Of a DNA stretch of 62,012 nt, positions 47,887-48,487 are shown piece after piece. The position numbers and the translations under genes are program-made. The notes below the pieces were generated by a model. It was not told the origin of the DNA and searched no databases. It saw nothing but the letters and a program-made list of their open reading frames with translations. Positions within the stretch are counted from its first letter, which is position 1. Each line of letters starts with the position of its first letter. Origin of the DNA: an uncultured Candidatus Saccharibacteria bacterium (GTDB taxonomy: Bacteria; Patescibacteriota; CAZHWT01); NCBI GenBank assembly GCA_964597145.1, contig CAZQWH010000005.1:1-62012 (forward strand). The letters are read 5' to 3'.

Positions 47887-48487
47887 TGGTATCTAGAGCT
47901 ATTAGTATCTAGTATTTAGTATTCTTGGGAAAACATTGTAATATGGGTGTATAGTATCTGGTATGGATAACTTAACTCGGAGTCTAATTAAATCCTTCAT
48001 AGACTTACGTGCCTGGCAACAATCGCACCAGCTTTCCTTGCGTATATATAAGATTACGAAAGCCTTTCCTTCAGAAGAGAAGTTTGCGCTAATCAATCAA
48101 TTACGGCGTGCTTCGGTTTCAGTTTCAAGCAATATTGCGGAAGGTTTCTCTCGTAATACATCTAGAGATAAGGCTCAGTTTTATACTATGGCCATAGGAT
48201 CTCTATACGAAATTCATAGTCAACTACTGTTAGCTAAAGATTTAGGATATATATCTACCGAATCTTATAATGCGGTATTTACCCAAGTTGAATCTGCAAC
48301 AAAGTTAACTAATAGGCTAAAGTCCAGTGCATACAAGCTTGGCGAGCTAGCTACCGTTAAATGATAACTTTTGTTACTATTAAAGCAGCAGGCAAGCAAT
48401 ATTCTAGTGTCTGAGATGATGCAAATGCGAAGTACGTAAGTTGTCAAATACTAGATACCAGATACAAGTAGCCAGCTACAAATTAAC
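47887..48487 (+). mobile_element. cassette: four-helix-bundle gene flanked by inverted heptamer arrays, between atpG and atpD
   Basis: Left units GTATCTA/GTATTTA/GTATTCT, right units AAATACT/AGATACC/AGATACA. Perfect 13-nt inverted pair at 47905-47917 and 48446-48458. Confidence 0.5.
47963..48364 (+). CDS. four-helix-bundle protein (23S rRNA intervening-sequence protein / Avd-like family)
   Basis: 133 aa. DLRAWQQSHQL..FPSEEKFALINQLRRASVSVSSNIAEGFSR..FYTMAIGSLYEI.SQLLLAKDLGYI. Confidence 0.8.
   Translation: MDNLTRSLIKSFIDLRAWQQSHQLSLRIYKITKAFPSEEKFALINQLRRASVSVSSNIAEGFSRNTSRDKAQFYTMAIGSLYEIHSQLLLAKDLGYISTESYNAVFTQVESATKLTNRLKSSAYKLGELATVK

Follow-up and report, generated by a model that had tools for sequence, protein, structure and literature searches.

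The closest described counterparts of the element reported here are the intervening sequences (IVSs) of 23S ribosomal RNA (rRNA), known from Leptospira and from helix 45 of Coxiella burnetii; such elements are located in helix 25 or 45 of the 23S rRNA gene. The element itself is a small gene flanked by two arrays of 7-nucleotide (nt) repeats in the ATP synthase (atp) operon of an uncultured Candidatus Saccharibacteria bacterium; it lies on contig CAZQWH010000005.1, of which a stretch of 62,012 nt was analyzed (referred to throughout as the window). Its gene encodes a 133-residue (aa) member of the 23S rRNA intervening-sequence protein (IVP), or four-helix-bundle, family. The Coxiella IVS is 444 nt long and is closed by a 28-bp terminal stem, carries an S23p open reading frame (ORF) in its loop, has a guanine-cytosine (GC) content below that of the genome, and is cut by RNase III within the stem (PMC4990558). 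Our element resembles IVSs in having a protein of the same family in the loop, an ORF-enclosing stem of 20-30 bp and a total length of 0.4-0.6 kb, and also in its sense orientation within the host transcript, its GC content below that of the host, and its sporadic occurrence among relatives (PMC4990558). It differs in that the host is a protein-coding operon (atp here, cas in cyanobacteria) and not rRNA: scans of the window with Rfam and tRNA models were empty, and the element lies between atpG and atpD. It differs further in that its arms are arrays of locus-specific 7-nt units, and in that excision by RNase III, which is known for IVSs, is only proposed here.

Hairpins of the repetitive extragenic palindromic (REP) or bacterial interspersed mosaic element (BIME) type have been reported to alter the stability of upstream mRNA segments. 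Like the structures described below, these are intergenic inverted repeats inside operons, and ORF-less versions occur here in the atpA-atpG and atpD-atpC spacers; REP sequences are conserved, however, and have no ORF in the loop, whereas the present arms are locus-specific, have a period of 7 and enclose a gene. Direct arrays of heptamers near start codons are known from Beggiatoaceae (TAACTGA), cyanobacteria and Bacteroidetes, their function and binding partner being unknown (PMC4679880; bioRxiv 10.1101/2022.06.06.494920). The arms of our element are of this kind, being tandem intergenic 7-nt units near start codons; as in short tandemly repeated repetitive (STRR)-type heptamers and the TAACTGA repeats, they often lie upstream of or overlap the start codon, and the unit sequence is variable. 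STRR-type heptamers have been described as direct arrays upstream of genes, whereas here two mutually complementary arrays enclose members of a small-gene family. A full-text literature search found no publication that links IVP or four-helix-bundle genes to heptamer arrays or describes such operon cassettes (absence there is not proof), and the earlier note on this DNA, which knew of no described case, was to that extent right.

The ORF occupies positions 47963..48364 of the forward strand, begins with ATG, and sits between atpG and atpD in an operon with the order atpF-atpH-atpA-atpG-IVP-atpD-atpC, all genes being on the forward strand. Its assignment to the IVS/four-helix-bundle family, made in the earlier note from the letters alone, was confirmed by profile search, in which the product scored above the curated cutoffs for PF05635 (23S_rRNA_IVP; E=2.7e-36, 124.5 bits versus 33.8) and TIGR02436 ('four helix bundle protein'; 114.9 bits versus 24), as well as by a match to PDB entry 2GSC, a solved family member (E=2.5e-20). 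A homopentameric ring is characteristic of this family; an AlphaFold2 (AF2) model of the monomer consists of four long helices (predicted local distance difference test score [pLDDT] 90.2), and with this model Foldseek returned 2GSC (template modeling [TM] score 0.91, root mean square deviation 0.9 A) and 2RLD (TM 0.87-0.89). More distant than these was 4DWL (TM 0.88), the structure of Avd. Because the fold is homologous to that of Avd, PF05635 is related to Avd, and a weak bAvd profile match (23.8 bits) was obtained, the gene might be taken for the Avd accessory protein of a diversity-generating retroelement (DGR); nothing beyond the family relationship favors this identity, which we consider extremely improbable. 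The product falls far below the cutoff of the NCBIfam Avd equivalog (NF033474, 28 bits versus 80), no template or variable repeats are present, no reverse transcriptase was found near the three IVP copies of the window or among the other window ORFs scanned, and the nearest neighbors are atp genes.

The GC content of the cassette with its spacers is 0.38, compared with 0.466 for the window and 0.45-0.51 for the atp genes, and the region is letter-identical (100%) in four independent assemblies from different sequencing runs, which rules out an assembly artifact. The population is represented in the DNA runs SRR11843827/35/36/37. The window is of patescibacterial origin, and the closest genomes found carry the label uncultured Candidatus Saccharibacteria. 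At the corresponding junction of the closest relative (locus L005, AtpD 85% identical), the atpG stop codon is followed after 3 nt by the first in-frame ATG of atpD and there is no IVP gene; the spacer measures 0-7 nt, or the genes overlap, in five other Patescibacteria (candidate phyla radiation [CPR]) loci, and it measures 63 nt in one more. A further relative (L006, 81% identical) has a 249-nt spacer with an ORF-less inverted heptamer-like hairpin and no IVP cassette, and a Woesebacteria locus (L011) has an 899-nt spacer (2351-3251) holding an unrelated antisense ORF for a 144-aa putative membrane or secreted protein. That atpG and atpD are normally adjacent, a point the earlier note proposed to check in related genomes, is supported by these distances. 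Comparison with the relatives shows the IVP gene to be an insertion in sense orientation between atpG and atpD; its absence from the L005 and L006 junctions, together with its low GC content, gives it the sporadic presence in close relatives and the deviant base composition of an IVS element.

Two side observations concern these relatives. The cassette-free L005 junction (5763-5812) has two copies of a direct repeat, AGTTTATGGATGAAAT, each of about 16-17 nt and separated by about 15 nt, which span the atpG stop and the atpD start; they might be the footprint of an earlier insertion or excision, or a plain duplication. The atp region of L006 contains three ORF-less hairpins (5640-5875, 7960-8090 and 8375-8495) with near-identical arms (AGAGTCCAAATGCCAAACAAAGATACAAG / CTTGGCATTTGGACTCTTG), which are a dispersed family of repeats resembling miniature inverted-repeat transposable elements (MITEs), unlike the locus-specific arms of IVP cassettes.

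The bracket around the atp cassette was reported in the earlier note as an inverted one that includes a perfect 13-nt pair (47905-47917 / 48446-48458), and this pair was found to be part of a longer one of 26 nt and 85% complementarity (47898-47923 / 48447-48472), made of degenerate GTATNNN units. The 5' arm array extends over 47886..47923 (pairing core 47898-47923), and the complementary 3' arm, an array of NNNATAC heptamers, over 48446..48472, with its last base 24 nt before the atpD start; both, like all features of this cassette, are given on the forward strand. The motif GTATCTRGTAT (up to one mismatch) occurs 23 times in the window versus 1.8 expected, a count reached in none of 100 shuffles. 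When 47866-48495 was folded as RNA, the terminal stem was present in both the minimum free energy (MFE) and the centroid structures, and in the partition function it comprised 24 long-range pairs with a mean pair probability of 0.93 and a duplex free energy of -26.3 kcal/mol; the stable closing stem anticipated in the earlier note therefore stands as a prediction, and the terminal inverted repeats of this copy are predicted to form a long ORF-enclosing stem of the IVS type.

Inside this stem, a mini-array (GTATCTGGTAT, 47954..47964) reaches into the start codon, of which it holds two bases, the first and second. It is perfectly complementary to 48455-48465 over its 11 nt and thus offers the 3' arm an alternative partner (a second perfect 11-nt match for that arm). 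In the fold that includes the outer arm, the start region is predicted to be fairly open (probability of being unpaired 0.41); when that arm is omitted, the 3' arm is predicted to base-pair with the region around the start (p=0.84), and the probability of being unpaired drops to 0.17. A second inner long-range helix, found by inverted-repeat search and present in the MFE and centroid folds, joins 48003..48018 (within codons 14-19 of the ORF) to 48426..48441 in the 3' untranslated region of the cassette (16 nt, 81% complementary), and a small local hairpin covers the atpG stop codon (47857..47887; 14-nt arms, 86% complementary, 3-nt loop), lacks a U-tract and was not called as a terminator. A scan of the atp region for sigma-70 promoters and terminators gave counts at the level of shuffled sequence and none within the cassette. 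Promoter candidates picked by eye between the arm and the start codon were dropped for wrong spacing.

The same arrangement recurs twice more in the window. A second cassette (52391..52924, reverse strand) contains an intact ORF (52434..52820, 128 aa, 46% identical to copy 1) between arms of GGAATAC/GGGATGC-type heptamers (52883-52924 and 52391-52427), with a predicted closing stem of 32 pairs (mean pair probability 0.73, -42.7 kcal/mol). A third (55922..56435, reverse strand; ORF 55983..56365) has the best-paired arms of the three copies, AGGATGT-type heptamers of 25 nt and 96% complementarity, and a predicted stem of 34 pairs (0.96, -45.8 kcal/mol). Its ORF contains a one-base frameshift (56150-56170): a run of A is one A short, reading GAAAAATT, and the frame would be restored by GAAAAAATT. 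Genuine decay, slippage and a fault of assembly are all possible causes. The L005 genome has two IVP genes downstream of atpC, each with its own complementary arms from different heptamers (closing stem of 22 pairs, mean pair probability 0.77, -27.4 kcal/mol). All five copies therefore have complementary arms, and the heptamers differ between copies. A transposon or MITE was considered for these elements and rejected, on the grounds that the three window copies have different arms, that copy 1 has no clear target-site duplication, and that no transposase was found among the approximately 47 window ORFs scanned.

Heptamer arrays were detected with Tandem Repeats Finder and with a period scan of our own, and the Tandem Repeats Finder rows for the 62-kb window are mostly period-7 arrays, situated mostly between predicted genes. 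Of what the earlier note had said about bracketing arrays, their presence in inverted orientation stands, whereas period-7 repeats are found window-wide and are not special to the atpG-atpD site. Two ORF-less hairpins lie in other spacers of the same operon. The one between atpD and atpC (50707..50811, forward strand) consists of a TAGTATT-type array, with the same unit as the arms of copy 1, then about 20 nt, and then (TACCAGA)x7.6, which ends 8 nt before atpC; the one between atpA and atpG (46854..46943, forward strand) has 44-nt arms of AAAACTN / NAGTTTT units, 73% complementary, around a 2-nt loop. Decayed IVP remnants were sought in the loops of ORF-less hairpins of the window, and none were found. 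Four perfect arrays of about eight copies each are also present (CAGTCTA at 1-55, TCCAAAG at 12464-12520, TCCACAG at 27989-28048 and TACCAGA at 50759-50811), all of them C-rich on the strand of the next downstream gene; a predicted start lies 8-55 nt downstream of the first, third and fourth, and about 240 nt downstream of the second. A common element of about 45 nt, GTCATTCTGGAAC...GAGATAGAATCCCTTCCA, precedes two of them (12422-12465 and 27948-27990).

We evaluated the bracket beyond the window on 80 IVP loci fetched from metagenomes, 78 of which were scored by local alignment of the 120 nt upstream with the reverse complement of the 120 nt downstream, with permuted upstream/downstream pairs as the null (RNAduplex on the 120-nt flanks was too noisy, with means of -43 kcal/mol as observed and -35 kcal/mol after permutation and with spurious duplexes that were long, and local alignment was used instead). 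Inverted flanks exceeded the permuted 95th percentile in 34 of the 78 loci and the 99th in 13, compared with five and one, respectively, in a direct-repeat control on the same loci. The flank period score averaged 8.4 and 7.8 at k=7 versus 3.2-4.2 at k=5, 6, 8 and 9, and period 7 is specific to cassette flanks. Among other genes of the same loci, 16/268 reached the threshold, and the top-scoring of these intended controls included further divergent IVP genes as well as genes of the GxxExxY / PDDEXK_3 nuclease family. In a fair control, for which both spacers had to be at least 60 nt, 24 of 51 cassette genes (47%) were bracketed versus 4 of 102 other genes (4%; p=2.9e-10), and the complete GxxExxY genes found were bracketed too (3/3). 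Chance was considered as an explanation and rejected.

The arms of the high-scoring loci stand close to the ORF, their median distance being roughly 10 nt (as read from the listing) from both the start codon and the stop codon, which leaves little room for a separate promoter, and the upstream array often continues into the start codon and the codons that follow (as in ATGAATC AAGAATC AGG..., encoding MNQES...). Cassettes in rRNA genes were sought among these metagenome loci, and none was found with ORF-free flanks on both sides. Many of the metagenome contigs stop roughly 40-340 nt before the IVP gene is reached, near the 5' heptamer array (L023, L025, L039, L044, L054, L063, L091 and L096), suggesting that assemblies break at the arrays and that cassettes of this kind are sampled too sparsely.

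These counts bear on the idea that the flanking arrays are independent cis elements of the neighboring genes, the 3' array being a leader of atpD like the (TACCAGA)n of atpC and the complementarity being incidental to a locally shared unit. That C/A-rich perfect arrays stand 8-55 nt upstream of other predicted starts (1-55, 27989-28048 and 50759-50811) fits this idea, as does the translational role proposed for heptamers beside start codons in Beggiatoaceae, cyanobacteria and Bacteroidetes (PMC4679880; bioRxiv 10.1101/2022.06.06.494920); a fourth array, at 12464-12520, is about 240 nt from the next predicted start. The idea would leave unexplained why, in the permutation test, the upstream array of a gene is matched by the downstream array of that gene and not by arrays from elsewhere, why IVP and GxxExxY genes are so specifically bracketed (47% versus 4%), and why orthologues with altered units still have complementary arms (below); we regard it as unlikely.

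Outside Patescibacteria, plasmid records were searched with tblastn, and nearly all of the homologues came from cyanobacteria (Nostoc, Calothrix, Anabaena and others) or from Riemerella. Of the 14 plasmid loci fetched, 7 scored above their own permuted 95th percentile, with arm units such as the TAGGGTG of Calothrix, the GGGAAAA of Nostoc and the AAGGTTn of Riemerella. Annotated four-helix-bundle genes on the cyanobacterial plasmids L099, L108 and L102 are sense-oriented IVP genes inside cas operons, with the arrangement cas6-IVP-cas4 in Pseudanabaena and Anabaena 90 and cmr2-IVP-cmr3 in Picosynechococcus. Comparison across all of these loci shows the heptamer bracket to be a family-wide architecture, shared by the IVP and GxxExxY cassettes of three phyla (Patescibacteria, Cyanobacteria and Bacteroidota).

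Three further properties of the metagenome cassettes describe how the gene sits in its bracket. IVP genes are co-oriented with both neighbors in 46 of 54 cases (85%), compared with 140 of 233 other genes (60%; p=4e-4), and are antisense to both neighbors in only one of 54. In 30 loci the 5' arm is rich in G and poor in C, and in two the opposite holds (p=2.5e-7); because an inverted repeat reads alike on both strands, this bias is a polarity of the hairpin, such that the gene always has the G/A/T-rich arm upstream, and it is consistent with a second function of the arm as the source of the translation start region. Among ORF-less hairpins both polarities are found. Orthologous cassettes (with the same flanking genes) have ratios of nonsynonymous to synonymous divergence (dN/dS) of 0.09-0.11 at dS >1.2, indicating that the protein is functional and under purifying selection and that the cassettes are long-lived; between such orthologues the arm sequences have changed while complementarity within each locus has been kept.

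We propose, with confidence that is about evenly divided, that the element is a promoter-less passenger cassette of the IVS type in a protein-coding operon, the arms of which pair in the atp mRNA. The sense orientation, the arrays reaching the start codon, the G-rich 5' arms and the predicted closing stem are what we count as indications of a role at the RNA level. On this proposal the cassette would be transcribed as part of the atp mRNA, and its arms would pair into the 24-bp stem, with about 520 nt left in the loop. The stem might then be a double-stranded substrate of RNase III, so that the cassette would be cut out and atpFHAG and atpDC would be left on separate RNAs, as in the excision of rRNA IVSs; or it might control translation of the IVP gene, the G/A/U-rich 5' arm carrying or abutting the start codon and the 3' arm being its complement. 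The two may act singly or together. A nucleic-acid-binding role of the four-helix-bundle protein is assumed here by analogy with its relative Avd.

The principal rival places the pairing at the level of DNA: hairpin- or cruciform-forming intergenic arrays would arise by slippage and be kept complementary by template switching, and selfish genes (IVP and GxxExxY) would land or survive in their loops, with no RNA role for the arms. We judge this to have a substantial chance of being correct, if one clearly short of even. Several results weigh against the RNA proposal, and some of them are what the DNA-level explanation would lead one to expect. The mismatches in the arms of 42 loci, read on the sense strand, comprise 29 G.U and 40 A.C, with no G.U excess and thus no wobble signature of selection on sense RNA, so that pairing may be at the DNA level. 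This genome commonly has heptamer arrays as well as heptamer hairpins that lack an ORF, and such structures occupy the neighboring atp spacers (and, in L006, the same atpG-atpD junction), so that the arms may be pre-existing host DNA structures and not the ends of a cassette; the arm sequences are, moreover, locus-specific and not common to the copies, as expected of target DNA. About half of the IVP loci are without significant inverted arms, and two cyanobacterial loci (L098 and L099) have direct, not inverted, heptamer arrays on both sides, which in L099 looks as if an insertion had split a tandem array. The whole-region fold of copy 1 is no more stable than shuffles (z=-1.1), a score that is uninformative because the loop is coding sequence, and no RNase III gene was found among the approximately 47 ORFs scanned in the window (the window being only part of the genome). 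The DNA-level explanation can further point to the PD-(D/E)XK-family gene in the same kind of bracket and to the frequent breaking of contigs close upstream of the IVP gene, at the 5' array.

The orientation and polarity data are less readily accommodated at the DNA level. Random insertion does not predict the sense bias, nor does it predict the 30:2 G-first polarity of the ORF-bearing hairpins when ORF-less ones have both polarities; no transposase, integrase or reverse transcriptase was found among the window ORFs scanned; and complementarity kept at dS >1 needs either selection or a continuing correction process. Telomerase-like repeat addition at both 3' ends of a break, which would fit the G-first polarity, was set aside, given that ORF-less hairpins have both polarities and there is no enzyme candidate. 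A broader and more speculative extension, which we think rather unlikely, is that IVP proteins and heptamer arrays are one system, in which the proteins would be trans-acting partners that bind the arrays as RNA or DNA and regulate or propagate them, and an IVP gene between arrays would be the autoregulated core of a genome-wide network (in Patescibacteria, in heterocyst-forming and other cyanobacteria, and in Bacteroidota).

The genes on either side of the cassette are those of the F1 gamma and beta subunits. atpG (46956..47864, forward strand; PF00231, E=3.6e-29) encodes 302 aa as called in L001 and has an alternative TTG start at 46935, and atpD (48496..50709, forward strand; PF00006 and PF02874) encodes a product with a long low-complexity C-terminal tail. 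Such long low-complexity extensions are found on three ATP synthase subunits, namely beta (atpD, 48496-50709; 737 aa, of which about 250 make up a C-terminal tail), alpha (atpA, 45219-46862; 547 aa) and b (atpF, 43757-44581; 274 aa), and the beta subunits of two relatives, L005 and L006, are likewise long (764 and 688 aa, respectively). Elsewhere in the window, C-terminal and N-terminal DUF2207 domains are encoded, with their order reversed, by two adjacent genes (23951-25021 and 25451-26242) that are separated by a small antisense ORF.

Repeats of other kinds are present as well. A nested palindromic element of non-heptamer type lies just upstream of IVP copy 2 (53036-53274); in it, a perfect inverted repeat of 28 nt, whose arms are 115 nt apart, is placed inside a 27-nt pair of 93% complementarity, each arm being itself a small hairpin. 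A dispersed intergenic REP-like repeat with the motifs CTGAGCGATGAGG and GGCTTCGCAATGACG occurs at 51160-51240, 27860-27925 and 12040-12065, one copy being inverted, and a 23-nt unit, ACTTGTTTCAGTTGTCATCCTGA, is repeated in 2.5 perfect tandem copies at the very end of the window (61923-61979).

Taken alone, the atp case is a curiosity, and the family-wide rule behind it is the interesting part. Two puzzles, the IVS-protein family and the heptamer repeats, are physically coupled in three phyla, and the coupling carries signatures of orientation, polarity and selection that are open to experiment. For annotation, it explains the small 'four helix bundle' and 'GxxExxY' genes found wedged into operons, and the arrays may explain the frequent breaks of metagenome contigs close upstream of such genes in this sample. 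IVS-type elements are not a curiosity of rRNA: they inhabit essential and defense operons (atp and cas) and leave these operons undisrupted, which implies a built-in tolerance within the polycistronic transcript.

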